Positions 39,197 through 56,358 are shown, numbered from the stretch's first letter. The stretch: 64,000 bases of DNA from Planctomycetota bacterium (GCA_045863855.1 BTVV01000013.1:9294-73293), one strand, 5' to 3'. The notes: generated by a model not told the origin, from the sequence alone. Numbers and translations: made by a program.

Positions 39197-40447
39197 CTAC
39201 TTCTTCACGTTCTTGTAGCGGTAGACCAGCATGGTGGCTTTATTGTGATTGCTGTCGCCGGCCCGGTAGAAGAAATGGGCGTTTAGCGCGGCATCGTAAA
39301 AGCCATGCCAAAGCAGGTGCTTCAAGTTTTCGCCCTTGCCTGAAATGTCCGGGGTCGAGTCGCCCATATCGGTCCAGCGGTTGGCTTCCGGATCGTACAC
39401 GGCGATCGGACCGTTGCTCTGATGCCACAGGACGACTCCATTGGCGGCATCGAAGTAAAGCTGCGCATTGTTGGTGGCGCCCAGTTGCTCCGGCTGGCCT
39501 TCGGCCTTGATTTCCGTCCACGTTCCGAGCTTCACGTCGTAGCAGGCAAAGCTATTGCCTTTGGCCACGTAGACGCGTTCGCGCTTCGAGTCGAAGCAGC
39601 CGTTGGAATCGATTTTGGATATCGAAGCAGGCACTTTGGCGCCCGCCGTCCATGTGTTGGTGGCGTAGTCGTAGAACCAAGTGGTGCCTTGGTGCGTGTA
39701 CAGCGTCTTCTTGAGGGAAGGGATGTACTCTGCGACGCCTTCGAAACGCCCGCCAGGGCCGGCTCCTTCTACGTACGTGCGCTCCCATTTATTCGCCGCC
39801 ACGTTCCAGAGCAGCGGATGCTTGGTCAACGGAAGGACGGCGCCGACGTTTCCGTAAGTCTGCTTCTCCTTGGGAACATCCAGCCAATCCCAGCGCTGCG
39901 GTACGGCTTTGCCCCACCAAGGGCACTGCGTCCACATGATGTGGTAGAGCTTCAAGTCCGTGTTGTAAGTGGTGTTGTTGTAGGCGTGCGAGAGGTACGA
40001 GATGGGAATGTCCTCGCCGTCCTCGGTGACTTCGAAGCCGTGCTTATCCAGCTTGAGTTTGGTTTCCTTATTCGCGCCGGGGTACAAGCAGATCCACTTG
40101 TGCGCGAGGGCGTCGTAAAACCACAGGTCGTCCATGTAGCGGCCGTCGGATTTCACGGCTCCGTGAACGCCGGTGCCGCAGAAGAACGCGCCGCCTAAGT
40201 CCGGCGCCGCGGCCATCTTCGAACACCAGGCTCGCCCGCGAGCGATGCCTTCTTGACCCCAGCGGGTATCGGCTTCGGGGCAGCCCAGGTTCAGCCATGC
40301 GTTGTCGCCCAGGGCTCTGATCTTTTCGATGTGCGGACCGGGTTTGGACGGCAACTCGGCCAAGGGGTTGGTGGAACTGCTTTCGCCGGCGGAGAGCAGA
40401 CTCGCCAGGCACCACGCCGCCAGCAACGCCATCGGAATCGATTTCAT
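39197..40447 (-). CDS. secreted Kelch/beta-propeller repeat protein
   Basis: Signal peptide. Repeated W/Y-rich blades (WFYD, WTxx). Confidence 0.5.
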   Translation of the reverse strand: MKSIPMALLAAWCLASLLSAGESSSTNPLAELPSKPGPHIEKIRALGDNAWLNLGCPEADTRWGQEGIARGRAWCSKMAAAPDLGGAFFCGTGVHGAVKSDGRYMDDLWFYDALAHKWICLYPGANKETKLKLDKHGFEVTEDGEDIPISYLSHAYNNTTYNTDLKLYHIMWTQCPWWGKAVPQRWDWLDVPKEKQTYGNVGAVLPLTKHPLLWNVAANKWERTYVEGAGPGGRFEGVAEYIPSLKKTLYTHQGTTWFYDYATNTWTAGAKVPASISKIDSNGCFDSKRERVYVAKGNSFACYDVKLGTWTEIKAEGQPEQLGATNNAQLYFDAANGVVLWHQSNGPIAVYDPEANRWTDMGDSTPDISGKGENLKHLLWHGFYDAALNAHFFYRAGDSNHNKATMLVYRYKNVKK

Positions 40448-41682
40448 ACGTGCTCCTTTGCTTTCACGTTTTCGGCAAGTCCTTCGGTATGCGCAAGATA
40501 CCGAGTCGGCACGCCCACGCGGACCGTAGGCCGGTGCGGTTGCTGCAAGCGCGCGAGCGCCAAGGCCGCGCCGATGCGGCCGAGTTCCACGCCGTCGATG
40601 CGGATCGCGTGGGCGGCGCCGCGCGGGAGCCGTTCGGCGGCGCCGGCGGCTTCCAGGCTAAGTCCATGATCGGCGCAGGCTTGTTGCAGCGCCTCGGCTT
40701 GATCCAGGTTGAAGCAGATTAACGCTTCGGGGCGTTCGGTATCCGGTTGTTGCGCCCAGCTTTGCGCCAAGTTCGCGGCTTCGCGAGCGCCGACATCAAG
40801 CCGATGAATCCAATCTTCGCGCACGGGCAGGTTGAGTTCGTCCATCGCGACGCGGTAGGCGTGCTGGCGGCGGACGCTGTCGGGCTCGACGCGCGTATGG
40901 GTGCGGACAAATGCGTTTAGTGCCGCGCCGTTCAGGGTTTCGGAAGGCGCCGGCGCTCCGATGACGCCACCCACGTAGTGGATGCGCCGCAAGCCTTGTG
41001 CTGCGAACGCTTGCACCGCCGCGCGATAGCCGTCCAGCGGATCGACGCAAACCTGATCGGCGCGACCGGCGCAGCGCGCGTCGTCGAAGTCCAGCAGGAC
41101 CGTGGGAAGCTTAAGCTCCAGCAGGCTTTCCAAGTACGCCTGCTCGACGACGTTGACCGTGATCAGGGCGTCGAAGCCTCCCGCGCGCACGGCCTCCAGC
41201 GGCGGATGCCGCGGATGCACCGGCAACGCTTCGCCCAAGGCTTCAAGCGTAAGCCCGCGCGCCGGAGCGTCCCAGACGGCGCGCGTAAACGCGGCTTCGT
41301 TCGGAACGCTCCAACTGGGAGCAACATTCGACAGGTTCCAGGCTTCCAGGACGCCACGCGTAAGCGCGCCCCACCAGGATTGAACTAAGCGCTCGGGGCG
41401 CACCGAGACGGGCCAGAGCAGCCCGACGCGCAGATGCCGCCCGGGCAGCAGCGGCGGCGCTTGGCGGTCGGCGACGTACGTTCCGCTGCCGCGACGCCGG
41501 ACAATCAAGCCCTCGGCGACCAACTCACGCAGCGCGCGGCTTACCGTCAGGGCGTTAACGTGAAGGCTGCGCGCGAGTTCCAACTCGGTCGGCAGGCGGC
41601 TTCCGGCGGGGTAGGCCGTACCCTTAAGGAGGCGCCGGAGATGCTCCAGGACGCGGGCGTGTTTGGGGGCATGGGTATCCAT
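40444..41682 (-). CDS. GntR-type HTH + LacI/periplasmic-binding-like sugar-sensing transcriptional regulator
   Basis: N-terminal GntR HTH (LPTELELARSLHVNALTVSRALRELVAEGLI). The stop overlaps the ATG of the Kelch gene (ATGA). Confidence 0.7.
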   Translation of the reverse strand: MDTHAPKHARVLEHLRRLLKGTAYPAGSRLPTELELARSLHVNALTVSRALRELVAEGLIVRRRGSGTYVADRQAPPLLPGRHLRVGLLWPVSVRPERLVQSWWGALTRGVLEAWNLSNVAPSWSVPNEAAFTRAVWDAPARGLTLEALGEALPVHPRHPPLEAVRAGGFDALITVNVVEQAYLESLLELKLPTVLLDFDDARCAGRADQVCVDPLDGYRAAVQAFAAQGLRRIHYVGGVIGAPAPSETLNGAALNAFVRTHTRVEPDSVRRQHAYRVAMDELNLPVREDWIHRLDVGAREAANLAQSWAQQPDTERPEALICFNLDQAEALQQACADHGLSLEAAGAAERLPRGAAHAIRIDGVELGRIGAALALARLQQPHRPTVRVGVPTRYLAHTEGLAENVKAKEHV

Positions 41683-41889
41683 ACCTCCCTGCGTACACCG
41701 CTCAAAAGCACAGTAATGTAATTATTATAAACATTACTAAAATTGAATCCGAAAGTCGGCGGCGTACGCGCAAGATATGATCGAATTATCCACCATATGA
41801 TCGATGAGCCTCCTTACCATGGGTGCTTCCGAGGGGTATGCTGGTCTATCGATGATCGATTCGTCGGATTACCCGGAGCACGCGCGTCC

Positions 41890-42786
41890 ATGAAGCTCAG
41901 CACCAAGCAGGTCGAATCCTACCGCGAGAACGGTTTCCTGATTGTCGAGGGCCTCGTTTCGCGCTCCGAACTCCAGGAACTTAAAGAAGATACGCTCAAG
42001 CTTTGCCGCGGCGAGTACCCCCATCCGGCCTTCCCGCCGCTCCCGGCGAACCTCACCGACAACGAGGTGCTCGAGCATTACCTTTGCCTGCATCAGGTTC
42101 ACCGAATCAGTCCGGTGATGATGAAGTACATCGCGCATCCGGGCATGGCGCAGGTCTTGAGTCAGATCGTCGCGCCCGACGTAAAGTGCATGCAGTCCAT
42201 GCTTTTCGTGAAGCCGCCGGATTTCCCCGGCCAGGCGTGGCATCAGGACGAGCTGTACATCCCGACGCGGGATCGTTCGTTGACCGGCGGCTGGATCGCC
42301 ATCGACGAGGCGACGAAGGCCAACGGCTGCCTGTGGGTCGTGCCTGGAAGTCACCGCACGGGCTACCTTTGGCCGCAGAAGGCGCACGAGCAGCCGGACG
42401 AATTCGACTTCGCTCCGATGAGCTACGGGTTCGACGAGCGCGAGGAGATTCCCGTCGAGGTGCCGGCCGGGTCGGCGGTCTTCTTCAACGGCTACACGCT
42501 GCATCGCAGCCGGCGGAACCGATCGAACATCTATCGCCGCGTGCTGGTGAACCACTACATGAACGCGTATTCGCTGCTGCCGTGGAACATCCCGGTTCCG
42601 CAACAGCCGGTGCCGAAGCACGTTAGCGCCGGGCAGGCCGATTTCCGCGACGTGATCATGGTCGCGGGGAAAGACCCGTACGAGTGGAAGGGCTACACGC
42701 GCGAGAACGGTGCGTACGCGCGGCCGTGCGAGAAGATCAAAAAGCGCCAGGCTGCGGAGAAGCAACTCGCCGGCGCCAGCAAGTAA
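41890..42786 (+). CDS. phytanoyl-CoA dioxygenase (PhyH) family protein
   Basis: HQDELY...VPGSHR...H matches the PhyH 2-His-1-carboxylate context. Confidence 0.8.
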   Translation: MKLSTKQVESYRENGFLIVEGLVSRSELQELKEDTLKLCRGEYPHPAFPPLPANLTDNEVLEHYLCLHQVHRISPVMMKYIAHPGMAQVLSQIVAPDVKCMQSMLFVKPPDFPGQAWHQDELYIPTRDRSLTGGWIAIDEATKANGCLWVVPGSHRTGYLWPQKAHEQPDEFDFAPMSYGFDEREEIPVEVPAGSAVFFNGYTLHRSRRNRSNIYRRVLVNHYMNAYSLLPWNIPVPQQPVPKHVSAGQADFRDVIMVAGKDPYEWKGYTRENGAYARPCEKIKKRQAAEKQLAGASK

Positions 42787-42816
42787 ACCGAGGCCTCGCT
42801 TCAGGAGTTATACGCC

Positions 42817-43566
42817 ATGGCAAACCTCGATCCGAAAACCGTTTACGACCGCGATGGGTATTATGTCGCGCGCGGGGTCTTCACGCCTGAGGAAGCGCGG
42901 GCGCTGCGCGAGCACTTTATGCGGCGGCGCGCGGAAGGGCCGAAACCCGGCGATCTGGGCGGGAATCCCAAGAGCGGCGAGAAGGATCCGCTCAATGCGT
43001 ATCCGCGCATGATCAACATGCATCCGTGGGACGAGACAACGAACACGCTTTGGCAAGACCCGCGCCTGAAAGACCTTGCGGCGAAGCTGGTGGGCGATGC
43101 GGTGGAGTTGAAGCAGACGATGCTGTACTTCAAGCCGCCGGGCGGGCGCGGGCAGGGCTTGCACCAGGACTGCCAGTACATCCAGCAGAAGCCGCTGATC
43201 GGCGTTTGGGTGGCGCTCGACGATTGCGACGCGGCCAACGGGCAGATGGTGGTCGTGCCGGGGAGCCACAAGCTGGGTCTGCAAGAAGTGACAAGTGCCG
43301 ACGAGTCCAAGAGTTTCGTTGGCGGGCAGACCGTATTGCCCGAGGGTTGCCGCGAAGCGGGCGTGCCGATGGCGGCCGGCGACGTGCTCTTTTTCGACGG
43401 CTTCACGATCCACGGGAGTTACAACAACACGACGGCCGACCGCTTCCGGCGGAGCTTCATCGTTCATTACGTCGGGGCGCACGCGGAGAAGCTGGTCGCG
43501 GACGAGAAGCAGCACATGAGCTACGTGCGCAAGCAGGTCTTGGAGAAGCAAAAGGTAGGCGCGTAA
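42817..43566 (+). CDS. phytanoyl-CoA dioxygenase (PhyH) family protein
   Basis: CAGGAG ribosome-binding site. HQDCQY...VPGSHK...H. Confidence 0.8.
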   Translation: MANLDPKTVYDRDGYYVARGVFTPEEARALREHFMRRRAEGPKPGDLGGNPKSGEKDPLNAYPRMINMHPWDETTNTLWQDPRLKDLAAKLVGDAVELKQTMLYFKPPGGRGQGLHQDCQYIQQKPLIGVWVALDDCDAANGQMVVVPGSHKLGLQEVTSADESKSFVGGQTVLPEGCREAGVPMAAGDVLFFDGFTIHGSYNNTTADRFRRSFIVHYVGAHAEKLVADEKQHMSYVRKQVLEKQKVGA

Positions 43567-43798
43567 GGAGTTAAGCGAAGGCGCGCAGACGGGAGCGTCC
43601 GCGGTTCGCGCAGCCGAACGCCGGGCTGCAATTAACACTTGTATCCGCCTCGCTTTAAGCTATCTTCCCCGCTTCGTTTTGAGCACGTCCCCGCGGCCCC
43701 TGTGAGTGGCCATATGGACTGCTGCTCGGGGCTAAGGGCCGGCGCCGCGCGAGTTTAGCTTTCGCCGCCGCGATCCCACGGATGCAAGGAGTCAGACG

Positions 43799-44476
43799 AT
43801 GTCTTCCGCCACAGGTATTCTCGGCCGCAAGGTCGGCATGACTCAGGTTTTCAACGAAGCGGGCTTGCGCGTGGGCGTGACGGTCCTGGAAGTCGGCCCG
43901 TGCAAGGTCTTGCAGGTCAAGGACGTCGAGAACGACGGCTACTTTGCGCTGCAGTTGGGCTTCGGCGAGAAGAAGGAAAAGAACACGTCGAAGCCGTTGC
44001 AGGGGCATTTCGCGAAGGCCGGCGCAAAGCCGGCTCCGTACGTCGGCGAGATTCGTCTCGCGGCGGCGGCCGAAGACAAGCAGGGCGAAGAGGTTACGGT
44101 TTCGATTTTCGAAGGCGTGCAGAAGGTGGACGTGACGGGCACGAGCAAGGGCAAGGGCTTCGCCGGCACGATCAAGCGTTACAACTTCCAGCGGCAGCGT
44201 GCGACGCACGGTAACAGCAAGAACCACCGGACGTTAGGTTCGCTGGGCCGGCACATGTCGATCAACAAGGGCGTGCCGAAGGGCAAGAAGATGCCCGGGC
44301 ACATGGGTAACGCGAAGGTGACGGTGCAAGGCTTGAAGGTCGTTAAGATCGATCCGGACAACCACTTACTGCTGATCGAAGGCGCGGTTCCCGGCCCGAA
44401 CGGGGGCTTCGTCGTGGTGAACAAGTCGATCCAAGAGAAGGTGCGGAAGGACAAGGAAAAGCGCCCGAAGTACTAA
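43799..44476 (+). CDS. rplC: 50S ribosomal protein L3
   Basis: AAGGAG ribosome-binding site. MSSATGILGRKVGMTQVF ... is the universal L3 signature. No rpsJ upstream or rplD downstream in this window. Confidence 0.9.
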   Translation: MSSATGILGRKVGMTQVFNEAGLRVGVTVLEVGPCKVLQVKDVENDGYFALQLGFGEKKEKNTSKPLQGHFAKAGAKPAPYVGEIRLAAAAEDKQGEEVTVSIFEGVQKVDVTGTSKGKGFAGTIKRYNFQRQRATHGNSKNHRTLGSLGRHMSINKGVPKGKKMPGHMGNAKVTVQGLKVVKIDPDNHLLLIEGAVPGPNGGFVVVNKSIQEKVRKDKEKRPKY

Positions 44477-44506
44477 GCCAGGAATTTCCGAAGATTCTGC
44501 TCGAAC

Positions 44507-44537
44507 GGGCCGGAAGAAATTCCGGCCCGTTTTTTTA
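44507..44537 (+). terminator. rho-independent terminator of rplC
   Basis: GGGCCGGAAGAAATTCCGGCCC hairpin followed by TTTTTTT. Confidence 0.7.
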
Positions 44538-44633
44538 TGCTTAAACCGCACGAGTGCTGCTCGAAGTGAGTTACGCAAAGTGTATGGCCGAGGAAGCTAT
44601 ACGAGGCGCTATATTTGCGCCACGTCGTGCGCT

Positions 44634-44703
44634 AAGTGTAAAAGTGTAAAGCGTAAGTGTAAAGTGTAAGGCTAACTTTACACTTAGGTTTACACTTTTT
44701 TTT
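44634..44703 (+). repeat. tandem/inverted AGTGTAAA octamer repeats forming long imperfect hairpin followed by T9
   Basis: Four direct copies of (A)GTGTAAAG are followed by two inverted copies TTTACACT and then TTTTTTTTT. It forms a very AT-rich patch in GC-rich DNA. Confidence 0.55.
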
Positions 44704-44784
44704 GACGCGGTTCGAGCGTGACAAAAGGCGCGAACCGGGTCGAATGGGTTCGAAAAAAGGCGCGTCCTTCCGTGACCTTCCGCG

Positions 44785-45372
44785 TCAGGGGTGCGGGGGA
44801 GGGGGTTGGGGCGCGTCGGCTCGAATGACGACCCAACGGGCGATGCGCGGGCAGCACAGAAAGACCAGCAGCAGGAGGAAGAGCTGGCCATACGGCGTAA
44901 AAAGGAAGAGCCAGAGCGGGTACCACCAGAAGACCGCATGCGCATCCACGCCTATATCCAAGTAATCGACGCCACCGCGTCGATTCAGGTACTGCCATTT
45001 CAGGTTCAACAGCATGACCCACGAGCCTCCGAAGGCGGCGGGGATTAAAACGCAAAGCGTAATAAGACGCCGGCTTGAGTCCGCCGTTCGATTACGCGCC
45101 AATAAGCGCAGGCCGATCAGCCACCAGATCGCGAGCAGCGTCCAAATAATCAGCAGTCCGATGAATAGCGGAGTATGGGCGTTCCGATCGATCAGTGGCC
45201 AAGCAAATAACCATGCGGCCGCGAACATTTCGACGGTCAATCCGTAGAATTCGGTGACGCGAAACTGGACCTTGGCCTGAGGGGCCACAGGCTTTAGCCA
45301 CATCGGCGCGAGCACGGCCGCCCCACAGACATGCGCGAGGGCCAAGGTCCACAAGAAGTCAAGGATGGGCAT
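44785..45372 (-). CDS. integral membrane protein, unknown function
   Basis: Five to six TM helices. ATG 45372 (MPILDFLW) is preferred over the longer track ORF. Confidence 0.5.
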   Translation of the reverse strand: MPILDFLWTLALAHVCGAAVLAPMWLKPVAPQAKVQFRVTEFYGLTVEMFAAAWLFAWPLIDRNAHTPLFIGLLIIWTLLAIWWLIGLRLLARNRTADSSRRLITLCVLIPAAFGGSWVMLLNLKWQYLNRRGGVDYLDIGVDAHAVFWWYPLWLFLFTPYGQLFLLLLVFLCCPRIARWVVIRADAPQPPPPHP

Positions 45373-45484
45373 TCCGGAGCTCCGCGAACTTCGCCGGTGC
45401 GGTCTTGTGAAGGCCGTGCAAACCCATAATATAGCGGTAGGTACATGCAGGGGAAATCCCACTACGGGGCGGCCGATTGAGCAT

Positions 45485-46246
45485 ATGGATGGAATCGTGG
45501 CGCAAAGCGATAGGCTTGGTTTCCGTCTGCTTCGAACTTTCGCATTTAGCGAATGTACGGCCTTGGTTTTTCCTGCCTTAGCATTTTCGGTTTTGGTTCT
45601 CTGTTCCTGTTCTAGTCCTAGTCAGAGGGAGCGAGAAAAATCCGCACCGAAGGACCCCCAAGCGAAGCCCATTACAGATCAGGTAGAGGATGGGGGTGAA
45701 TCTTCATTTTCAGGTGAGATCATTACGCCTGACTTGATGCAGTCGGTTCCTCCGGAAAAGCGGCATCCATTTCTTATGCCTGGCGAAGTGTATAGCGTGC
45801 CGCGCGTATTAAGCACCCCCAGCGGCTCGGTTTTAGAATTAGCCGAAAAAGGAATTAAGATCGTTAAGGGCCATTGGGAGATTAAAGGGGACTTTATTCG
45901 AGGCTCGCCCTTAGAAGGACAACCGCAGGCCATTTTGGAGTTCGATGTCGAAGATGCCTACTATGTCGGGATTTGGGCGAGAGGCGAGGCGGCGGGAGTG
46001 GGCTATTCTGTGGGCAAAAATACTATCTACGGCATTCGTCCGAACAGTACCTTAAAGTCTGTGGGACTCTATTTCCCTATTAATCGAAGTCCCGAACTCT
46101 GGTTGGACGAGAAGCGCCATCAATCCGAGTTGCCCGACTCGGATACTGTCCTTTCAGAAATTAAAGAGGGCAAGTGTTGGTTGATCGTAGAGCAGGGCAC
46201 AATCGAGTTTATGAATTTTAGCATCTATATGCGTTCGAATAATTAG
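45485..46246 (+). CDS. lipoprotein, unknown function
   Basis: Signal peptide with lipobox LVLC-S. Low-GC codon usage. No known domain. Confidence 0.5.
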   Translation: MDGIVAQSDRLGFRLLRTFAFSECTALVFPALAFSVLVLCSCSSPSQREREKSAPKDPQAKPITDQVEDGGESSFSGEIITPDLMQSVPPEKRHPFLMPGEVYSVPRVLSTPSGSVLELAEKGIKIVKGHWEIKGDFIRGSPLEGQPQAILEFDVEDAYYVGIWARGEAAGVGYSVGKNTIYGIRPNSTLKSVGLYFPINRSPELWLDEKRHQSELPDSDTVLSEIKEGKCWLIVEQGTIEFMNFSIYMRSNN

Positions 46247-46281
46247 TAGCATTGGGGTCGGGTGTGGTAGTTGGACTTGGA

Positions 46282-47088
46282 ATGGATCCATCTATGGGGA
46301 AGCACGTCAACTCGCTGCAGGAAGCAGCGAAATATTCGAATGCGCTATTTTACTTGGATTGCGAGAACGAAATACCGGTTACAAGCCCAGTACGCTTGGT
46401 TCGATGTACGGATGATGCGTTGCAGCGGTTGAGCGATGATTTGGGTTTTTACGGACTTCTTACGGATGCCACTCAGTGCGTCTTTTTTGATATTACACCA
46501 AGCGATCCACCTTGGACGAAAGCGCAGCTTAGCGGGGATATCTGGGTTGCTCCTAAATACGAGGCACTTCTGGGCGCTGCGATTCGGCAGGTGCTTATCG
46601 GCAAGGCCGAAGACCTATACAATAGTGCCTTTGACCCAACGAAACCCCTTTACCCCCTTGAGTCGCGCAAAGTCGGTGCTACGCCCATGTCCCTCGCAGC
46701 GGAATCAAACGATTGGGATGGAACGTTTGTTCGAATGCTCCGACTGAACCCCAACATCAATGCCTGTAACTCGAATGGTGATACTCCACTTCATGGCGCC
46801 GCGAGAGGCGGCCACGCCGCTTTCGTTGAGCGATTAATCGCATTACGAGCTATGGTCAATGCCAAAGGCGCGCATGAAAGAACGCCTCTCCACCTTGCCA
46901 TCCTGAATCAGATGAACAAATATCCTCCGTCCACAGACGCCGCAAAGCTTTTGATTCTGAACCATGCCGATGTGAATGCAAAGGATGAGAAAGGCTTAAC
47001 TCCTTTGGACTACCTATTGCGGTGGTGTCCCAACGATCTTGAGTTGAAGGAAATGCTTCTGTCGAGAGGCGCAGTAAGAGGAGGCTAG
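46282..47088 (+). CDS. ankyrin-repeat protein with unknown N-terminal domain
   Basis: Two to three C-terminal ANK repeats (GDTPLHGAARGGHAAFVERLI..., ERTPLHLAI..., KGLTPLDYLL). An alternative TTG start lies at 46252. Confidence 0.65.
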   Translation: MDPSMGKHVNSLQEAAKYSNALFYLDCENEIPVTSPVRLVRCTDDALQRLSDDLGFYGLLTDATQCVFFDITPSDPPWTKAQLSGDIWVAPKYEALLGAAIRQVLIGKAEDLYNSAFDPTKPLYPLESRKVGATPMSLAAESNDWDGTFVRMLRLNPNINACNSNGDTPLHGAARGGHAAFVERLIALRAMVNAKGAHERTPLHLAILNQMNKYPPSTDAAKLLILNHADVNAKDEKGLTPLDYLLRWCPNDLELKEMLLSRGAVRGG

Positions 47089-47190
47089 TAGGCCGGTGGC
47101 ACGGGCAGTCCCTCCCACCGATCTTGAACGCGTCGCCCTTTCTGGATTTGGTGCCACGGGATGCGGACGTTCGCAACCCGTGCACACCAC
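47089..47190. repeat. REP-like imperfect palindromes (GGTGGCACGGG / GGTGCCACGGG ... CCCGTGCACACC)
   Basis: Two related GC-rich palindromic units lie between the ankyrin gene and the transposase. A third related unit (CGTGCCACCAGCC) overlaps the transposase stop at ~47905-47918. Confidence 0.3.
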
Positions 47191-47238
47191 CGTACGTCTC
47201 TCGATGAACGTCACGGACTCCTATAGACTGCGCGGCGC

Positions 47239-47901
47239 ATGGACGGTCGGCCCCCGCATCGCAAGCGCGTCCGCACGTACAACGTGCCGGGGCACGCGCA
47301 ATTTCTCACCTTCTCCTGTTACCGGCGCATGCCTCTATTAAGTAACGACACATGGCGTGGTTGGTTGGGCGAAGGCGTCGCGCGCGCATGCGCTTCATTC
47401 GACTTCGCGCTGTGGGCGTATGACTTCATACCGGAGCACGTTCACCTCCTGGTGAAGCCGCGCGGGAGCGTCTACGACGTGAGCGCCTTTCGCCGGAGTC
47501 TCAAGCAGGGCGTTTCCAAACGCATCGTGAACGCGCTTAAAGAGAAGAACGCGCCGGTGCTCGCGAAACTCCGCGTCCAAGAGCGTCCGAGGAAATGGTG
47601 CTACCGCTTCTGGCAGGAAGGGCCGGGGCACGACAAGAACATCTGGAGCCTGGCCAAGGTGATCGAGAAGGCGGTATACTGCCATCGGAATCCGGTGGAT
47701 CGCAAACTCGTGCGTTCGCCGGAACAGTGGCGTTGGTCGAGTTTTCGCTGGCTGGAGTTGGGTAACAAGGAACAAGAATCGCTGGCGGTGGACGCTTGGG
47801 ACGAGCGGCTCCGCGACGATCCGGACGGTGAGGCACTGGCTGCTTACACCCGCAGCCAGTGGCACCAGTTCCTAAAGGGTACGCGGAAAGATGAGGCGTG
47901 A
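47239..47901 (+). mobile_element. IS200/IS605-like Y1 (HUH) tyrosine transposase, REP-associated (RAYT-like) type
   Basis: HUH motif EHVHLLV. Catalytic Tyr context AVYCHRNPV. C-terminal W.WSS motif (WRWSSFRW). 220 aa. Confidence 0.7.
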
Positions 47902-47979
47902 CCGTGCCACCAGCCATGCGCATGAAGGTGCGCTTAAGTACGAAGAGCAAATTCTCCTGATACTAAAGGGGCAATAGCG

Positions 47980-48315
47980 ATGGATGCGGAAGAAGCCGTC
48001 AAGGCACTCTGCCATTTAAGAAGGCGTGGAGGCATTACGGAGGATGGTTTCATTTTGGCATTGATAGCCAACGCGTCTGAATATTTTCCGGCTGACATTT
48101 GGCGTTCAATAAAAGATGACGACAAGGCGGAAGTTAAGCGCCATGTGTTCTCGATAAGGAATGGGGCTTCGGTATTTGGAGGGATTGACCGCAAGGCGGT
48201 ACTGGAAGGCGTAAAAGCATTTGTTGATTTCTTTGAAAAGGACCCAGCCGCCGTCCTCCGCAAAAACTCATCGCGTGGCGGATCAGGGGATGAAGGAACC
48301 GTCGATAAAAAGTAG
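47980..48315 (+). CDS. small hypothetical protein (111 aa)
   Basis: ATG start. Low-GC codon usage like the neighbouring island genes. No known family. Confidence 0.35.
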   Translation: MDAEEAVKALCHLRRRGGITEDGFILALIANASEYFPADIWRSIKDDDKAEVKRHVFSIRNGASVFGGIDRKAVLEGVKAFVDFFEKDPAAVLRKNSSRGGSGDEGTVDKK

Positions 48316-48808
48316 AAGAGCAGGGCTGAAGTAGAGTCGGAATTGGCGGCTTCAACGCAGATCCGTGCAAACGATTGCAATCCCTTCCGCCAAGTAGCCG
48401 CCAAAGTTTTGCCATCGAAACCGTAGATCAAGAGATCGAGAAGGCTTGCAACCTACCACCCTTGGTTTCCTAAACCGGAGGTCGCCCTCTGCTTGCTCCG
48501 AAGGGCGGGCTCTGCGTTGGCCTCGCCCGCCGTATGGTCTCGATGCGACGCCCTGCGGGACGCCTTGCCGTTTCAAAAGCGCCTGGCGACGCGGTGAGCA
48601 CGCTTTTCAGCGAGCTGCCAGGGCGCGGGATCGATCGTTCCGGCTACGCATCTTTACGAAAGAGTGCGCGTTCTTGTGAGGGCAAAAAATTGGGTTAGGC
48701 TGAGCGGTGCATGGACGGCAAAACGCACCGGCAGCATGCGCGCACGTGCCAGCGGGATCGGCGGGCGGACGGCGTTTTGAACCGGATGCCTTGGACTTCC
48801 GCCTGCGC

Positions 48809-49975
48809 ATGTTGCGTCACGCGCCTTCATCCGTGAAATCCCGTACGCGCGTTCGCGCGTTGCTCCTGCTTTGGATCGCGCTCGTCTTCGGCGCTTTGTG
48901 GACGTACGGGATGCCGGCGGGGGCGGCGGGCGCGGGCGTGGGGTTCGCGGTGCGTCCGGCGCCGCCGGCGGGCGGCGGCAAAGCGTTCCTGCATGCGTCG
49001 ATGCTCGACGGAAACAGCGTGCGTTCGGTGCACAGTTGCACGCTGGTGGAACTCTCCGGCGGGCGCTTGCGCGCCTTCTGGTACGGGGGGAGCCGCGAGG
49101 GGGCGCTGGACGTCGCGATCTACACGGCGGTGTACGATCCGTCCGAGCGGACGTGGAGCCGCGAGCGGGCGCTGATCGACCGGGCGGTTTCGGAAGACGG
49201 ACTGCAGCGCTGCGTCCAGAAGCTGGGCAATTCGTGCGCGCTGCTGGACTCGAGCGGGAAGCTGTGGCTCTTCTTCGTCACCTCGATGACGGGCTGGTCG
49301 GGGAGCAGCATCAACGTCACGACTTCGCCGGACGAAGGCGAGACGTGGACGGCGCCGCGGCGGCTGGTCACGTCGCCGTTCTTGAACCTGAGCACGCTGG
49401 TGCGCAGCCCGCCGTTTCAGTTCGCGGACGGGACGATCGGGCTTCCGGTGTACCACGAATTCCTGAGCAAATTCTGCGAGCTGTTGCGGCTGGACGGGGA
49501 CGGCAACGTGCTCTCGAAGCAGCGTCTGACGCAGGACCGTCTGGCGATCCAGCCGGCGATCGTGCCGTTCGGGGCGCTGGAGGCCGTGTGCCTGATGCGG
49601 CCGACGTATTCGTCGCCCAAGCGCGTGATCGGCTCGCGGACGACGGACGGCGGGCGGACGTGGAGCGCGGCGGCGCCGCTGGAGCTTACGAGCGACCGTT
49701 CGGGCGTGGCGGGGGTGCGGATGCCCGACGGCGGGCTGCTGGCGGCGGCGCGGGTGATGCGCAAGCTGACGCTTTCCGTATCGCGCGACGAAGGCGCGAC
49801 GTGGCGGACGGTGGCGCACGCGGCGGACGGCCTGGTGGCGGAAGACCCGAACGAGCGGACCACGTATCCGTGCCTGCTGCTGACGAAGGCCGGCGAATAC
49901 CACCTGGTCTTCACGTACAACCGGCGCGAGATCCGGCACATGCACTTCAACCAAGCGTGGCTGGATCTGCCATGA
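48809..49975 (+). CDS. BNR-repeat / sialidase-like (exo-alpha-sialidase fold) protein with N-terminal signal anchor
   Basis: Three Asp-box motifs S-x-D-x-G-x-T-W (SPDEGETW, TTDGGRTW, SRDEGATW). N-terminal hydrophobic anchor. Confidence 0.7.
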   Translation: MLRHAPSSVKSRTRVRALLLLWIALVFGALWTYGMPAGAAGAGVGFAVRPAPPAGGGKAFLHASMLDGNSVRSVHSCTLVELSGGRLRAFWYGGSREGALDVAIYTAVYDPSERTWSRERALIDRAVSEDGLQRCVQKLGNSCALLDSSGKLWLFFVTSMTGWSGSSINVTTSPDEGETWTAPRRLVTSPFLNLSTLVRSPPFQFADGTIGLPVYHEFLSKFCELLRLDGDGNVLSKQRLTQDRLAIQPAIVPFGALEAVCLMRPTYSSPKRVIGSRTTDGGRTWSAAAPLELTSDRSGVAGVRMPDGGLLAAARVMRKLTLSVSRDEGATWRTVAHAADGLVAEDPNERTTYPCLLLTKAGEYHLVFTYNRREIRHMHFNQAWLDLP

Positions 49976-50613
49976 CCGTTCACGCGCTGAGCGCCTGCTT
50001 CGGCCTGGGCGGCTGCTTGCTCGTGGCGCTCTTCTTTTTAACCTCGGCGTTTCGCTTCGTGGCCGTTCCGGTCTGGGCGCGCTGGGGCTTCGCGGCGGCG
50101 GCCGTGGCGGCGTTGCTGGTTCCGCTGGACGGTATCTCCGGCGCGGAGTACGTGCGCTCGTGGACGGGCGACGTGAGTCTGACGCTGGCGGCGCTGCTGG
50201 CGCTGTGGTGCTGGGAGCAGCTTTCCGGGCGGCGCGTGCTGGAAGCGCGGAGCTTGACGCGGCTGAGCGGCGCGGTGCTGGCGTTGGCGGTCTGCTTTTA
50301 TCCGTTCGCGCTGGGGTGGTCGATGTTCGATCCGTACGCTCTGGGGTACGGATCGCACGCGCTCTTCGCGAGCCTGCTGCTGCTGACGCTGGCGGCGTGG
50401 TACGCCGAAGAGCACGTGCTGGTGCTGGTCCTGACCTTCGGCGCGGCGGGCTTCGCGCTGGACGTGCTGGAATCGCGCAACCTGTGGGATTACCTGATCG
50501 ATCCGGTGCTGAGTCTGCTGGCGCTGGTGTGGCTGGCGTCGCGGCTGGCGCTGCGGTGGCCGTGGCGCGCGAAGCCGGCCGCCGGCGCGGCGAGCGAAGC
50601 GGCGGCGCTCTGA
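49972..50613 (+). CDS. integral membrane protein, unknown function
   Basis: The ATG overlaps the sialidase-like stop (ATGA). Five to six TM helices. Confidence 0.5.
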   Translation: MTVHALSACFGLGGCLLVALFFLTSAFRFVAVPVWARWGFAAAAVAALLVPLDGISGAEYVRSWTGDVSLTLAALLALWCWEQLSGRRVLEARSLTRLSGAVLALAVCFYPFALGWSMFDPYALGYGSHALFASLLLLTLAAWYAEEHVLVLVLTFGAAGFALDVLESRNLWDYLIDPVLSLLALVWLASRLALRWPWRAKPAAGAASEAAAL

Positions 50614-50637
50614 ACCTTTCTTAAAAAGTCAGGCTCT

Positions 50638-51567
50638 TCAGAAGTCCGCACCGGGTTCGGCCTCGGCGGAGGGCTCTTTGGCGTTGGGCCGGAGGTGATG
50701 CGGGAATTTGGATTCGAGGCGGGCTTTTAGTTTTTCGCGCGCGGGGCCATCGAGGGCGGCGAGGAGGCTTGCGCGGGCGGCATCAACGAGTTCGCGGGCG
50801 GCGGCGGCGGCATCCTGCATGAACTGCTGCGCGTCCTTGGCGAAGGCGGCGAGTTCGGGCGGCAGGTTCTGGGGTTCGCTCGACTGTTTGGCCAGCGCCC
50901 AGCCTTGTGCGGCGCGAGCTTCGAGTTCGCGGATGCGCGGTTCGAGCTTGGCGAGGCGAGCGGCCAGATCGGCGGCGAGCTTTTCGCGGACGGCGTCGAG
51001 CGCTTCTTTCTGGGCGCGGTCGGAGCCGGTGAGCACATCGTTGGCGCGCTTTTCGTAGCGGCGGCGCAGTTCGACGGCGCGTTCGGCGAGGCGGGCCTGT
51101 GCGGCCGTCCATTCCTGCTCCAGCTTGTCCCGTTCGGCTTGATAGGTCTCGCGCAGCCGCTGCATGGCCGTGGTGCCGGCGGGGAAGATCTCTTCGGCCG
51201 GGACGCCGCGCGCGAACGAATAGAGCAGATCGACGCCGCCGGGCGGCACCTTGAGGACGAAGGTGCGGCGCGGACCGTAATCGAGGTCGGACAGATCGGG
51301 CGCGGCGGGCAGGCCGAAGGCGAAGCGCACGCCGCGTTCGACGCCGTTGGGGTGCAGGCCGAAGTGCATGGCTTGGCCAATGGTGCTGTAGTGCGCGGCG
51401 CCGGTGGCGAGAAACTGAAGCGAGACGGCGGCTTGCCCGCGCTCGGTTCGAGAGGCTTCCACGCGGATAACCTTGGGGCGCTCGTTCTTGGGCGCGGATT
51501 CGTCCTCGGCGCGCGCGGCGGCCGACGCGAAGAGCAGGAGCGTCAGGGTGGCGGGGGCGAGGCGCAT
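50638..51567 (-). CDS. periplasmic coiled-coil protein (Spy/CpxP-like), paralog A
   Basis: Signal peptide MRLAPATLTLLLFASAAARA. Shares a conserved block with paralog B (GGVD.L..F..G...EEIF). Ala/Glu/Arg-rich coiled coil. Confidence 0.5.
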   Translation of the reverse strand: MRLAPATLTLLLFASAAARAEDESAPKNERPKVIRVEASRTERGQAAVSLQFLATGAAHYSTIGQAMHFGLHPNGVERGVRFAFGLPAAPDLSDLDYGPRRTFVLKVPPGGVDLLYSFARGVPAEEIFPAGTTAMQRLRETYQAERDKLEQEWTAAQARLAERAVELRRRYEKRANDVLTGSDRAQKEALDAVREKLAADLAARLAKLEPRIRELEARAAQGWALAKQSSEPQNLPPELAAFAKDAQQFMQDAAAAARELVDAARASLLAALDGPAREKLKARLESKFPHHLRPNAKEPSAEAEPGADF

Positions 51568-51755
51568 GGGGGCTCCGGTGGGGCGAAGTCCAAAATTCAA
51601 ACGGCAAGAATCCAACCAACGGCCAACGACAGCAACGGATCCATCAACGGAAACTTCCACAGCTACTTCAACGGCTGCGGGCGGGACGCCCGCGATACGG
51701 GGTTGCGGCCGGCCCCCGTCCGGTGGGGACGGGGGCTGAGGCCGCGGGATGAGGG

Positions 51756-52787
51756 TTAGAAGTTCTCGCCGGGAGGAGCCGCGGGCTTTTCGGGCGCGCC
51801 TTGGGGCTCGTTGCCGCGCTCGGGTCGATTGCCACGGTCTCCACCGGGAGGTCCGCCGCGACCGCGTCCGCCGTCGCGCATCTGCTGGCGGCGCTCTTCG
51901 AGTTCCTTGAACTGCGTCTCGAGCTTGGTCTTGGCGTCTCCGGTGAGGGCCGCGAGCATCTTGGCATGGGTGTCCTGCGTGACCTTCTCGATGGCCTCGC
52001 GGAGCTTGCCTATGACTTCCTGGCCCTTCTGGTAGACGCCGGCGAGGGCGCGCCAGTCGCGGTTCTCGCGGACTTCGGCGCCTTTGGCCGTGGCTTCTTC
52101 CTTGAGCTTGGTCAAGTCTTCGTTGAAGGGCTCGTTGGCCTTGGCGCGTTCTTCGTGGTAGGCCTTGGCGAGCGCATCGAGCTGTTCTTTCTCGGCCTTC
52201 TTGTCGCCCAACTGTTCGTTGGCCTTGCCTTCGTACTGTTCGCGCAGGGCGATGACCTTGAGCGCGAAGGCTTTGTTGGCGGCGTTGAGTTCGGTCTGCA
52301 GCTTCTTGAGTTCCTCGGCGTATTCCTTGCGCAGCCCGTCGAGGGAGGCGGTCTGTTCTTCGGTGAGCGTGAAGATTTCTTCGGCCTTCAGGCCGTCGCG
52401 GAAGGCATCGAGGTTGTCAACGCCGCCGACGGGTGTATTGACGACGAAGCGCTTCTGGACGCCGAAGTCGAGGCTTTCGACTTCGATGGGCGAGCTGCGC
52501 CCGACCATGAAATCGATCTGGCGATCGATCCAGGAGGTGGGGTTGTTTCCGCCGCCAAAACCACCGTTTCCGCGTCCGCGGAAGCCGCGCATCATTTCCG
52601 GCCCGCCGCCGGGTTGCATGCCGTCTTTGCGTTCGCCTTGCGGAGCGTTGGCGCCGGGGGTGACGGTGACAACGGCATCGCCTTCCTTTTTGGGCGCGCC
52701 TTCTTCTTCGGCCTGGGCGTGCCAAGGCAGCCAGCAGGCCAGGGCCAGGGCGAGCCCCGCTTGGACCTTCTTCGCTTCGCACAACAT
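51756..52787 (-). CDS. periplasmic LTXXQ-motif coiled-coil protein (Spy/CpxP-like), paralog B
   Basis: AGGAGG ribosome-binding site. Signal peptide. LTEEQ motif. Gly-rich tails. Confidence 0.5.
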   Translation of the reverse strand: MLCEAKKVQAGLALALACWLPWHAQAEEEGAPKKEGDAVVTVTPGANAPQGERKDGMQPGGGPEMMRGFRGRGNGGFGGGNNPTSWIDRQIDFMVGRSSPIEVESLDFGVQKRFVVNTPVGGVDNLDAFRDGLKAEEIFTLTEEQTASLDGLRKEYAEELKKLQTELNAANKAFALKVIALREQYEGKANEQLGDKKAEKEQLDALAKAYHEERAKANEPFNEDLTKLKEEATAKGAEVRENRDWRALAGVYQKGQEVIGKLREAIEKVTQDTHAKMLAALTGDAKTKLETQFKELEERRQQMRDGGRGRGGPPGGDRGNRPERGNEPQGAPEKPAAPPGENF

Positions 52788-52837
52788 GGTACGTCCTCCT
52801 GTGGTTCGGCTCTTCGCAGCCGGATGAAAATCGATGT

Positions 52838-54110
52838 TTACTTCGTTCCCGTCCACGCGTCGGGCGGGCGATAGCGTTCGCGCCCGCGGCGCACGGCGCC
52901 GGCGGCACGTTCGAGCTTGCAGGCCTGTCCGGCGGGCGTGGGCGCTTGCGCGTCGCGTTCCAACTGGCCGAGCCTGCGTTCGTGAGCTTCGAGATACTGC
53001 GCGACTCGGGCGCGGCGCTCGGTGAGTTCGCCGCGCGCCGCGGCTTCGGCTTGAGCCAGCCCGGCGTCGAGTTCCTTCAGGGTGCGGCGGTATTCGTCGA
53101 CGCGGGCGGAGTAGAGCGCGCGCTGGGCATGGAGCGCTCCGGCGTCGGCGGTCTGCTTAAGCGTCTCGACGCGCTTCTCGACGGTATCGAGGAAGACCTG
53201 GACGTTCTCGCGTTCGAGGTCGGAGACGTACATTTCGCCGGCGCGGACTTCGACGGCGCCGGAGGCGTGCGCGGCGGCGACCTGGGCCGAACCGCTGAAG
53301 ACCATCACGATGCCCTGGCCGCGGCGATCGGGATTGGGCGCGCCGGGCGGCGGGGCTTCTTCCTGGAAGACCATGGAGACGCCTTCGACCTTCGCGTCGA
53401 GGGCGGTGCTTTTGACCACGAGCGGTTCGGCTCCGCCGGGTTCGTAGGCGAAGAGCAGGCCGTCCTGCAGATGCAGCGCTTCGGCGGCGCCGCGCGCCTG
53501 CGGCCGGAAGCGCGTCTCTTGGAGCAGGCGCAGGCGCCCGCCGTTGGCGGTGCCGAAGACGGCTTCGCCTTCCTTACTGACTTGATAGAGCTTGCCCGGC
53601 GCGATCGCTCCGGCGGGCTTGCCGTCGGCGTCCAGCAGTGCGGCGGACCCGGGCAGCATTTCGATGCGCGCGACCGCGGCGCCGCGGTCCTGGAGCGCGC
53701 GGATGCCCAGCCAACTCAGGCCCAACGCAGCGACGCACGCGGCGGCCGCGCCGAACCGGCGCAGCCCAGGCGAGCGGCGCGCTTCGGAAATGAGGAGCGG
53801 GGCGCTGCCGGGGTCGCGCACGGGCGATGGCTGGAGCGTGGAATCATTCGCGGCGGTGTCCGACGGGAGCGCGGCCATGACACGCGCGGCGAAACGTGCG
53901 CCGGGCTGCGCTTCGCGCGAGGCGGCTACGAGTTGCGCATCGACTTCGTCGAGCGCATCGAGAAGCGCGCGCGTGGCGTCCGACGCGCGGGCGCGCTGGA
54001 GCGCTTGCGCGGCTTGGGGCTCGAGCGTTTCGCCGTTGCGTTCGCGCACGTGCGCTTCGGCGGCGGCGAATGCTTCGGGCGTCAGCGCCTGTTCCAGATC
54101 TTCCGGCGTC
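52838..54110 (-). CDS. anti-sigma factor (single-pass membrane, periplasmic sensing domain)
   Basis: Immediately downstream of the ECF sigma gene. Cytoplasmic N-terminus, TM helix FGAAAACVAALGLSWLGI, then a ~270 aa periplasmic domain. Confidence 0.6.
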
Positions 54111-54218
54111 ATGGCCACTCCTTCCACATCCAGCACGAGACTCGTACCGCGGGTTTTGCTGCCGCAGGCGCGTAAATCTCTCGAACTGCGATTATTACCG
54201 GCGCGTTCACGGTGCTGC

Positions 54219-54848
54219 TCATGGGCGTTCGCCTTTGCCGATGGCGTTGCGCAAAACGGCGAGTGCGCGCGTCAGGCGGCTGGTGATGGTGCCGATGGGC
54301 ACGCCTTCCGCTTCCGCAATCTGCTTGCAGCTCAAGCCTTGCTGGTACTTCTGCAGCATGGTCTGGCGGTAGGGTTCGGGGAGTTCTTCGACCATCGCCA
54401 GGACATCGGCGGCGCGAGCGCGGTCGGGGTTCGGTTCGGGTTCGGGCACATCCATCTCGGGATGGAGCGCGCTTTCGGGCCGCGACGACTGGCGCCGCGC
54501 TTCGCGCGAGGCGCGGTGGCGGGCGATCTGGAGTAGCCAGGGGAGAAAACGAGCCTGTTCGCGCAACTGAGCCAAGGCCGAGAAGGCGTTGACGAACACC
54601 TCCTGGGCCAGGTCTTCGGCCCGATGCGGTTCGCGGACGTACGGAAAGACGACGCCGTACACGACGCGCTGATAGCGTCCGACGAGTTCTCCGAAGCGTT
54701 CGCGCTGGCCGGCCAGGACGGCTTGGATGCACTCGGCATCCGCGGCAGCGGCCGCCGAAACGGGGGGCTCGGCGGAGCTGGCTGCATCCTTATTAGGGGG
54801 CACGGGCTGGGAGGCCCGGCGTGGCGAAGGCGCCGTCATCACACACAT
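54219..54848 (-). CDS. ECF (sigma-70 family group IV) RNA polymerase sigma factor
   Basis: Region 2 (AEDLAQEVFVNAF, LPWLLQIARHR) and region 4 HTH (LSCKQIAEAEGVPIGTITSRLTRA). Confidence 0.85.
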   Translation of the reverse strand: MCVMTAPSPRRASQPVPPNKDAASSAEPPVSAAAAADAECIQAVLAGQRERFGELVGRYQRVVYGVVFPYVREPHRAEDLAQEVFVNAFSALAQLREQARFLPWLLQIARHRASREARRQSSRPESALHPEMDVPEPEPNPDRARAADVLAMVEELPEPYRQTMLQKYQQGLSCKQIAEAEGVPIGTITSRLTRALAVLRNAIGKGERP

Positions 54849-55071
54849 CCTACTTAGGGCTCGGAACCCTGATTCTTGCTGCCGCGAGCATCACCTTACT
54901 CTGTAACTCTTAATCCTGATAGTGTTTACCGCAAGGCATGGGGGTTGGGGCCGCGCTTTGTATATAAGCTATATTTTTTCTATGGTTAACCTTTCCGGAG
55001 CCATCGATACACTGATTGAGATCACGTAAGCACTTGTGCTTTATAGACCTGCCGGTACCGAAGGAACGCTT

Positions 55072-56358
55072 ATGTCGACGTCGCACGTCGCCATCCCAGC
55101 CCCTCCGCCGCAGGTGCTGGGCGGCTTCGAACTGATTAAAAAGCTGGGCCGCGGGGCGATGGGCACCGTGTATCTGGCGCGGCAGCAGACGCTGGACCGG
55201 CTGGTGGCGCTGAAGGTGCTGGCTCCGCACTTGGCCGAGAACGAGCAATTGATCGGCCGCTTCCAGCGCGAAGCGCGCGCCTCGGCGCGGCTGAATCATC
55301 CGCACATCGTCCAAGGGATCGACGTCGGCCAAGACCGCGAAAGCGGGCTGTGGTACTTCGCGATGGAGTACGTGGACGGTCCGACGCTCTGGTCGGTGCT
55401 GAAGGATGCGGGCCGGATCCCGGAACGGCGTGCGGCGGCGATCGTGCTGGCGATCGCGCAGGCGCTGGAGTGCGCCGAGAAGAACGGGATCGTGCATCGC
55501 GATATCAAGCCGGACAACATTTTGCTGACGCGGCTGGGCGAGCCGAAGCTGGCGGACTTGGGCTTGGCAAAGGTGCTGGCCGACGACGCGACGGCGACGC
55601 AGTCGGGGATCGCGGTAGGGACGCCGCATTACATGGCTCCGGAGCAGGTGCGCGGGGAGACGGACCGTCTGGACGTGCGTTGCGATATTTATGCGCTGGG
55701 CTGCACGTTTTACCATTTGCTGAGCGGGCAGACGCCGTTCGAGGGGAAAGCGGCGACGTTGATCATGACGCAGCATCTATCGGCGCAGCCGGTTCCGATC
55801 CGGCAACTCGCGCCGGAGGTGAGCGACGGGTGCGCGCGGGTGCTGGGGAAGATGATGGAGAAGAGCCGGCGCGCACGCTTCCAGAGCGCGGCGGAGCTGG
55901 TGGCGGCGCTGGAGCAGCTTCTGGCGCCGGCGGCGGAGAGTCCCGCTCAAGAGCCGCGGCGCACGCCGCCGTCGATCCGTGCGGTGCGCGGCCGGCCGGG
56001 CCGCAGCGCGATCCGGCTGGAGGCTTCATCGCGGCGGCTACCCGAGCGCGTGGCGCGGCGGGAGCCGGAGTTTCGCCCGCCGAATCTGCTGCGCGGGATT
56101 GTGACCGATCTGGCGGTGCTGGTGGTGGTGCTTGGGGTGCTGGGCGGCGGCGCGTATTACGCGTACCGCGAAGGGCTGTTGGGATTCCTGCATCTGCCGC
56201 CGCCGAACTTGAGCAAGGACGCTCCGCGCGAGGCGCCGCCGCAAGCTCCGGAGGCGCCTGCGGCGAAGCTGCCGCTACCGCTTCCGCCGCTGGAGATCGA
56301 GCCCGAGTCGGTGCCGGCGCCGGAGCCGATCGAGTTCGAGAAGGTGGACGGGAAGTGA
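55072..56358 (+). CDS. serine/threonine protein kinase (membrane-anchored)
   Basis: GRGAMGTV..K, HRDIKPDN, DLG, APE. A TM helix follows the Pro-rich linker. Confidence 0.85.
   Translation: MSTSHVAIPAPPPQVLGGFELIKKLGRGAMGTVYLARQQTLDRLVALKVLAPHLAENEQLIGRFQREARASARLNHPHIVQGIDVGQDRESGLWYFAMEYVDGPTLWSVLKDAGRIPERRAAAIVLAIAQALECAEKNGIVHRDIKPDNILLTRLGEPKLADLGLAKVLADDATATQSGIAVGTPHYMAPEQVRGETDRLDVRCDIYALGCTFYHLLSGQTPFEGKAATLIMTQHLSAQPVPIRQLAPEVSDGCARVLGKMMEKSRRARFQSAAELVAALEQLLAPAAESPAQEPRRTPPSIRAVRGRPGRSAIRLEASSRRLPERVARREPEFRPPNLLRGIVTDLAVLVVVLGVLGGGAYYAYREGLLGFLHLPPPNLSKDAPREAPPQAPEAPAAKLPLPLPPLEIEPESVPAPEPIEFEKVDGK

Follow-up and report, generated by a model that had tools for sequence, protein, structure and literature searches.

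A mosaic variable segment downstream of a stand-alone rplC gene in an uncultured Planctomycetota lineage

How did DNA of markedly lower GC content come to lie directly downstream of a ribosomal protein gene in otherwise high-GC DNA? The question is raised by a 64,000-nucleotide stretch from an uncultured Planctomycetota bacterium (GCA_045863855.1 BTVV01000013.1:9294-73293; "the window", overall GC 0.633, with positions counted from its first letter), in which five genes lie between rplC, encoding ribosomal protein L3, and a sialidase-like BNR_2 gene. The original prediction, made from the sequence alone, described positions 44560-48700 as a horizontally acquired island encoding a membrane protein, a lipoprotein, an ankyrin-repeat protein, a Y1 transposase and a small orphan protein. 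All five open reading frames (ORFs) are present (Table 1). The island itself is supported, but its edges are corrected to 44791 and 48666, and instead of one homogeneous insertion it combines two layers or more in a mosaic: orphan cargo of low GC, and a host-like 825-bp Y1/hairpin element. The convergent spacer that runs from the stand-alone rplC to an ECF-sigma/anti-sigma operon is, in our judgement, probably a permissive hotspot in which foreign DNA has been layered.

Table 1. Features downstream of rplC, in window positions
Feature	Coordinates	Strand	Support
rplC (ribosomal protein L3), left conserved flank	43799..44476	+	TIGR03625 265 bits
rplC intrinsic terminator, 12-13-bp GC-rich stem + T7	44503..44540 (stem-loop 44503-44532)	+	z -5.5
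AT-rich hairpin of GTGTAAAG units, then T8, in conserved flank	44636..44708	+	z -4.9
195-aa membrane protein, 4-5 hydrophobic segments, no family	44785..45372	-	GC 0.595
Variable segment, 3876 bp	44791..48666		blastn homology to L083 stops at 44790, restarts at 48667
253-aa putative lipoprotein or secreted protein, orphan	45485..46246	+	GC 0.49
264-aa protein, ~140-aa N-terminal domain of no known family + ankyrin repeats	46294..47088	+	Pfam Ank E 2e-15
Discrete Y1 (RAYT-like) element, 825 bp, GC 0.61-0.63	47091..47915	+	outer inverted repeats GGCCGGTGGCACGGGCA / TGACCGTGCCACCAGCC
Left 34-nt hairpin (REP-like)	47150..47183	+	
Y1 HUH transposase gene, 220 aa	47239..47901	+	Pfam Y1_Tnp
Right 34-nt hairpin, inverted relative to left, inside 3' end of Y1 ORF	47833..47866	-	
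111-aa orphan protein, no hydrophobic segment	47980..48315	+	GC 0.49
Non-coding right end of variable segment, GC 0.59	48316..48666		no homology to L083
BNR_2 (sialidase-like) gene, start of right conserved flank	48707..49975	+	Pfam BNR_2 E 7e-66

The segment and the same site in relatives

The sharp fall in base composition that had been noticed between the rplC terminator and the sialidase-like gene was borne out by calculation: the GC content of 44560-48700 is 0.547, against 0.637 for windows of the same size elsewhere (sd 0.022, minimum 0.586), and the lowest-GC 2-kb window of all 64 kb (0.519) starts at 45101. The fall is patchy along the region. The lipoprotein, ankyrin (GC 0.51) and 111-aa genes deviate from the 36 window genes used for comparison both in GC at third codon positions (GC3 0.49-0.53, z -5.8 to -6.7) and in a codon adaptation index-like score (z about -4.5). 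The Y1 gene is host-like in composition (GC 0.61, GC3 0.75, z -1.1) and the membrane-protein gene intermediate (GC3 0.73, z -1.6). Because the host-like Y1 unit separates two low-GC blocks, the GC profile is bimodal. Uniform GC and codon usage would have spoken for core DNA; both proved strongly non-uniform.

Relatives were located through an L3 search, which found 99%-identical L3 on megabase contigs. The sister locus with this L3 (L083; ENA ERZ27309503, a 760-kb contig) has about 92-93% nucleotide identity to the window and is collinear with it in two blocks, L083 5405-10991 corresponding to window 39204-44790 and L083 14285-20678 to window 48667-55111. Between the blocks, 3876 bp in the window and 3293 bp in the sister are unrelated except for Y1 fragments. 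Both homology breaks are exact: the left one (44790/44791) follows ...CCTTCCGCGTCAGG, where the membrane gene has its stop codon, and the right one (48666/48667) precedes the BNR_2 ORF by about 40 bp. At this site the sister carries a 564-aa GmrSD type IV restriction enzyme (Pfam GmrSD_N PF03235 and GmrSD_C PF07510; PADLOC Orf5 E 1.6e-135; GC 0.456) along with a 57-aa and a 131-aa ORF. A third genome (L091; GCA_027493525.1; L3 80% identical) has one unrelated gene, Abhydrolase_2, separating rplC from the conserved block, and in two more distant ones (L097, GCA_016200135.1; L099, GCA_026184295.1; L3 about 69% identical) 84-120 bp lie between rplC and the convergent homologues of p366, p432 and ECF sigma. 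This short convergent spacer represents the empty site. In L083, L091, L097 and L099 no relatives of the membrane, lipoprotein, ankyrin and 111-aa proteins occur, and the genes are not syntenic across the relatives compared. With different cargo in the sister, an empty site in distant relatives and deviant codon usage, the proposal that the region is horizontally acquired cargo rather than core genome withstood comparison, and the site behaves as a replaceable hotspot rather than as the record of a single insertion event.

A second, apparently older layer adjoins the variable segment. The BNR_2 gene is found in L083 at 92.6% amino acid identity and is absent from L091, L097 and L099; likewise, the gene for a 213-aa membrane protein that follows it is common to the window and L083, has host-like GC and is missing from the more distant relatives. 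Presence in both sisters and absence from distant relatives mark this pair as an older insertion layer. Farther into the right flank, the strongest dinucleotide-signature deviation of the window falls at 50000-52900, which probably reflects low-complexity or coiled-coil protein composition; this interval encodes the paralogues p340 and p366 (30-38% identity), of which L097 and L099 each have one copy only.

The left edge of the island had been assigned to a cluster of GTGTAAAG repeats. The cluster is real, with three exact copies where 0.53 are expected, and forms a hairpin with a 24-bp stem, but it lies in the conserved flank, the homology break being about 90 bp to its right. A hairpin occupies the same position in L083 (10835-10905), built of the unit TGTATAC and aligned to that of the window without gaps; since the structure belongs to the flank common to both loci, it does not mark the border of the island. 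All repeat units differ between the two loci in the same manner, TGTAAAG in the window and TGTATAC in L083, and the opposite arm is altered to match. The two loci differ at 18 of 65 positions in this hairpin, versus 2 of 38 in the terminator of rplC beside it (36/38 identical), which is itself as real as predicted. The AT-rich hairpin may act as a second terminator, or it may be an array of repeats bound by a protein with which it co-evolves. An Rfam search of 43500-49000 returned sub-threshold chance matches only, placing both hairpins that follow rplC outside the known RNA families.

The rplC gene stands alone, lacking rpsJ or rplD as neighbours, in the window as well as in L083, L091, L097 and L099 (positions 10001-10684 of each of these extracted loci; L3 identity 99% to about 69%). 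Because this is so in every relative examined, the detached L3 gene is a lineage trait and not a local rearrangement. Directly upstream of rplC (41743-43566) is a tandem pair of paralogues of the PhyH (phytanoyl-CoA dioxygenase-like) family, kept in L083 and not in L091, L097 or L099; by this distribution, the upstream side of rplC has likewise been remodelled in the lineage.

A Y1 hairpin element within the segment

The Y1 gene is part of a discrete element that lies between the two low-GC blocks and begins 3 nt past the stop codon of the ankyrin gene. Its outer inverted repeats are 17 nt long (47091-47107 and 47899-47915), and inside them lie two inverted hairpins of the pattern GGTGCCACNGGNTGCGG..GT..GCANCCNGTGC, which occurs in two copies only in 64 kb against a chance expectation of 0. 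The motifs of the HUH enzyme can be read directly from the protein: H67-V-H69, and Y147-C-H-R-N151 as the YxxxN motif. In E. coli TnpA_REP, the catalytic tyrosine Y115 and an asparagine four residues on, N119, lie on helix alpha-D (PMC3479197). The protein scores 26.1 bits with Pfam Y1_Tnp (cutoff 23), 64.1 bits with NCBIfam REP_Tyr_transpos NF047646 (under the cutoff of 80, with profile positions 2-146 of 146 aligned) and 25.9 bits with NCBIfam transpos_IS200 (cutoff 55).

Two loci from one metagenome (L100 and L101; JGI Ga0196964) encode Y1 proteins 67% identical to that of the window. Compared with one another, the two loci show 90% identity across exactly 722 bp, hairpin to hairpin, and no relationship beyond this stretch. 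They carry the same inverted hairpins and the outer motif GTGACCGTGCCACC, and their ends align with those of the window unit. The seven hairpin copies have in common an 11-bp stem with one compensatory pair. Matching ends, matching hairpins and unrelated flanks define the Y1 unit as a discrete, IS-like (insertion sequence-like), RAYT-related element.

Remnants of the same element lie on both sides of the sister's cargo. The Y1 left end with its hairpin is found downstream of GmrSD (L083 13393-13552, 83-87% identity), and residues 138-189 with the right end lie upstream of it (11066-11260). No further hairpin copies were found in the 64-kb window, nor in 20 kb of L083 beyond this remnant. The order right end, cargo, left end is what two decayed flanking Y1 copies would be expected to leave; such a pair could have come about, for instance, when a circle of Y1 and GmrSD recombined with a resident Y1. 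Together, the two 90%-identical units with unrelated flanks and the permuted remnants argue for mobility or duplication of the element.

It may be asked, then, whether the whole 3.9 kb is one Y1-driven transposon of the IS200/IS605 type, inserted beside rplC in a single event with the other genes as passengers. A Y1 gene with intact HUH and Tyr motifs inside the segment, and remnants of the same element beside the alternative cargo of L083, are what such a transposon would predict. The hairpins and inverted-repeat ends bracket 825 bp only, however, with no hairpin copy, and no guide sequence that Y1 could recognise, at 44791 or 48666; the mobile unit of L100 and L101 is 722 bp long and has no passengers; and the host-like GC of Y1, which the cargo does not share, points to different histories. 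We consider the single transposon unlikely. The transposase appears to serve only its own 825-bp unit within a replaceable site.

Two further repeats were noticed around the element. A 14-nt sequence, CGGCGCATGGACGG, spans the Y1 start codon (47233-47246) and recurs at 48705-48718 and at L083 14323-14336, just inside the right conserved flank; the homology of L083 to the Y1 5' flank stops at CGGCGCATGGACGG, a match of marginal significance (E 0.007-0.4 in a small search space). Beside the left-end remnant, L083 13560-13700 contains three GC-rich perfect palindromes, CGCGCCCCTCCGGGGCGCG, CCCGGGGTTGAAACCCCGGG and GCGTCCCGCTGGGACGC (z -2.9), a cluster that resembles a different REP-like repeat family and is absent from the window.

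Orphan cargo and its probable layered acquisition

As had been noted from the sequence, similarity to common families does not extend beyond ANK and Y1: Pfam and NCBIfam recognise only the ANK repeats and Y1_Tnp among the five products, and the other cargo proteins have no match in Pfam, NCBIfam, PHROGs or PADLOC. Profile searches of the lipoprotein, the ankyrin N-terminal domain and the 111-aa protein yielded no families. Single-sequence AlphaFold2 (AF2) modelling of the lipoprotein (pLDDT 41.8) and modelling of the ankyrin N-terminal domain from a three-sequence alignment (pLDDT 38.3) gave structures too poor for fold searches. PDB sequence searches with the Y1, lipoprotein and 111-aa proteins returned nothing meaningful, exact-sequence look-ups with the ankyrin, Y1, 111-aa and P0121 products found no record, and blastn against plasmids and phages, together with viral-contig scans, gave no cargo match. 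Nor did the 195-aa membrane protein match anything in viral contigs.

The putative lipoprotein has one N-terminal hydrophobic segment ending in LVLCSC, and its C-terminal ~135 aa are predicted, at low confidence, to be all-beta. Among 5.8 billion clustered proteins it matched only itself, in a word-indexed search of limited sensitivity, and it had no family, PDB or viral match. The start of its ORF is ambiguous: the NCBI annotation begins at MPGEVYS and gives 156 aa and no signal peptide, 253 aa, including a signal or lipobox-like segment, are compatible with Logan calls and with the ORF, and the longest ORF (293 aa; 45365-46246) overlaps the divergent membrane gene. The ankyrin gene is probably co-transcribed with it, and the products of both are identical to NCBI proteins of the metagenome-assembled genome (AMXMBFR7_10600 and AMXMBFR7_10610, on a contig of 82.8 kb). 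For the 111-aa protein, an exhaustive HMMER search of 1.84 billion representatives retrieved itself and one spurious repeat protein; that hit, P0126, was rejected as a homologue because it is a repetitive junk ORF. This protein, too, had no family, PDB or viral match.

The N-terminal domain of the ankyrin protein has two homologues only (61% and 54% identity), on short metagenome contigs. The closest one that comes with a gene context, in L092, carries a frameshift that divides it into two ORFs (3279-3866 and 3848-4141); with a gene for a secreted HEAT-repeat protein it forms a two-gene islet (2468-4141, GC 0.48-0.51) between radA (GC 0.70) and a gene of GC 0.65. The low GC of this islet indicates that the ankyrin gene family is foreign cargo in another high-GC genome too.

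A defence gene at the same site in the sister invites the suggestion that the window cargo (membrane, lipoprotein, ankyrin and 111-aa proteins) is an uncharacterised anti-phage or toxin-immunity module, the counterpart of GmrSD in a defence hotspot. The foreign composition and sporadic distribution of the cargo would suit such a module, as would weak matches of the ankyrin region to PADLOC candidate models. Those matches, however, are limited to the generic ANK repeats (PDC-M72A E 1e-8, and Ankyrin), the other proteins giving none; no nuclease, NTPase or other effector domain was found with Pfam, NCBIfam, PHROGs or PADLOC; and the ankyrin homologue of L092 has other neighbours, so the genes are not a conserved travelling set. 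This makes the defence module improbable. We give equally little credence to its extension, in which the site downstream of rplC is a hotspot for defence genes, recombination between copies of the hairpin-flanked Y1 element captures and swaps its cassettes, and the orphan genes are an unrecognised defence or immunity module, although swapping of this kind would fit the order right end, GmrSD, left end in the sister.

That low-GC DNA of another organism was joined at repeats through misassembly or misbinning must also be considered. Short-read contigs 100% identical to the window were found in runs DRR491768, DRR491769 and SRR22452305. One set covers 42461-45656 and so crosses the left junction (the sample also yielded L096); another, from a different, unrelated sample, covers 44808-47120, from the membrane gene through the ankyrin gene to the Y1 left end. 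In many samples, Logan contigs stop at about 44496, 44631-44656 and 44741, at the rplC terminator and the AT-rich hairpin, and in two independent samples they stop at 47120, inside the Y1 left end. These ends, together with the fact that nothing independent spans 47120-48667, are what an artefact would leave. Most probably the assembler broke off there because of palindromes or repeats, as de Bruijn assemblers are expected to do at palindromes; population heterogeneity was rejected as the cause of the ends at 44496-44741, which coincide with palindromes. The break at 47120 may point to a Y1 end that, in those communities, is present more than once or varies. Given the identical contigs on the left, and Y1 remnants at the very same locus of L083, which show that the element belongs here, we regard an artefact as very unlikely.

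Accretion at a replaceable hotspot may be pictured as follows. The older layer comprises BNR_2 and the 213-aa membrane protein, of host composition and carried by both sisters; the younger, strain-specific layer (44791-48666) is wholly different between them. In the window the latter comprises the membrane gene, the lipoprotein and ankyrin genes as a pair, and the 111-aa gene, all but the membrane gene foreign in composition and essentially orphan, together with the Y1 element; in the sister it comprises the low-GC GmrSD gene bracketed by decayed, permuted remnants of that element. The cargo probably arrived by horizontal transfer and may have been exchanged by recombination, either homologous recombination across the conserved flanks or recombination between Y1 copies serving as portable homology; recombination between Y1 copies would explain the order of ends around the cargo of L083. 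What the Y1 enzyme moves would be its own unit of 0.7-0.8 kb and nothing more, in single-stranded form. The cargo proteins may form an envelope or cytoplasmic accessory module, possibly related to defence or immunity.

Several observations weigh against this account. The dinucleotide signature, computed along the window, is not anomalous in 44560-48700, and the near-native membrane and Y1 genes could be older residents rather than part of a single acquired block. Both would fit native core DNA of odd composition, for instance weakly expressed or fast-evolving genes, that the relatives deleted. The GC3 deviation of three genes speaks against such an origin, as do the different DNA, and not a deletion, in the sister, the 84-120-bp spacer in relatives with L3 at about 69% identity, and the finding of zero to two homologues among billions of proteins; we hold it to be very unlikely. 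The edges lack direct repeats (none was found at 44791 and 48666 in repeat searches of the window, and a whole-window search found no dispersed repeat family), an integrase and a tRNA gene (the 64 kb contain no tRNA or tmRNA genes). Insertion at tRNA genes and flanking direct repeats are common in genomic islands and not obligatory. For 47120-48667 and the right junction, the window assembly is the sole source. Two genomes define the variable segment, so that the direction and number of events are deduced from their comparison. The lipoprotein and 111-aa ORFs are putative coding genes, called from sequence with no homologue to support them, and both AF2 models being unusable, the cargo carries no functional assignment.

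Hotspot accretion nevertheless seems to us the likely course of events, and three states of one site are documented: empty in the ancestral form, occupied by a defence gene in one sister and by orphan genes in the second. Bacteria commonly carry small strain-specific islets in which orphan genes are found together with an IS. The present locus is a clean, well-bounded case of flexible genome content at micro scale, in an uncultured Planctomycetota lineage of the anammox-reactor type, and its RAYT-like Y1 element, as a hairpin-Y1-hairpin unit, behaves like an IS; descriptions of such elements from this phylum are few. The novelty lies in this one instance and in the record of the unit in Planctomycetota. 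Features of this kind are well known, and current understanding would be challenged only if the cargo turned out to be a new defence module.

Comparison with known systems

RAYT (TnpA_REP) enzymes with flanking REP sequences were reportedly described by Nunvar in 2010 and by Bertels and Rainey in 2011. The window element resembles them in its Y1 HUH enzyme with a YxxxN helix motif, in full-length alignment to REP_Tyr_transpos, and in inverted, imperfect flanking hairpins with a stem mismatch and a compensatory change (PMC3479197; PMC5581495). It differs in that the protein scores 64 bits, below the family cutoff of 80, and that no dispersed REP copies were seen in 64 kb. Moreover, a gene and hairpin unit of the window type occurs twice with unrelated flanks in one metagenome, in the manner of an IS, whereas classical RAYTs of groups 2 and 3 are single-copy and immobile.

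With the IS200 group (IS200/IS605) the element has in common a unit of about 0.7-0.8 kb with a Y1 transposase as sole gene, subterminal hairpins, discrete ends, more than one occurrence and no evident target duplication. Unlike IS200/IS605 elements, whose ends are not inverted repeats, it has end hairpins in opposite orientation and further inverted repeats outside them, and its transposase is longer (220 aa) and scores 64 bits with the RAYT model versus 26 bits with the IS200 model. IS200/IS605 elements insert 3' of a fixed tetra- or pentanucleotide, and the three insertion sites of the Y1 unit reveal no target sequence that they share.

As a locus, the segment is closest to the flexible islets and integration hotspots of bacterial genomes. 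It is only 3.9 kb long, has no integrase, tRNA gene or flanking direct repeats, holds orphan cargo in which no defence domain is recognisable and has been sampled in two variants. In common with those systems it shows sharp breaks between conserved flanks, alternative cargo in a sister that includes the defence gene GmrSD, low-GC, codon-deviant cargo, an empty site in distant relatives and a mobile-element gene. The sister's protein matches GmrSD_N, GmrSD_C and PADLOC Orf5/HEC-06 over its full length; GmrSD is absent from the window, and it is relevant solely as evidence that the site exchanges accessory or defence cargo.

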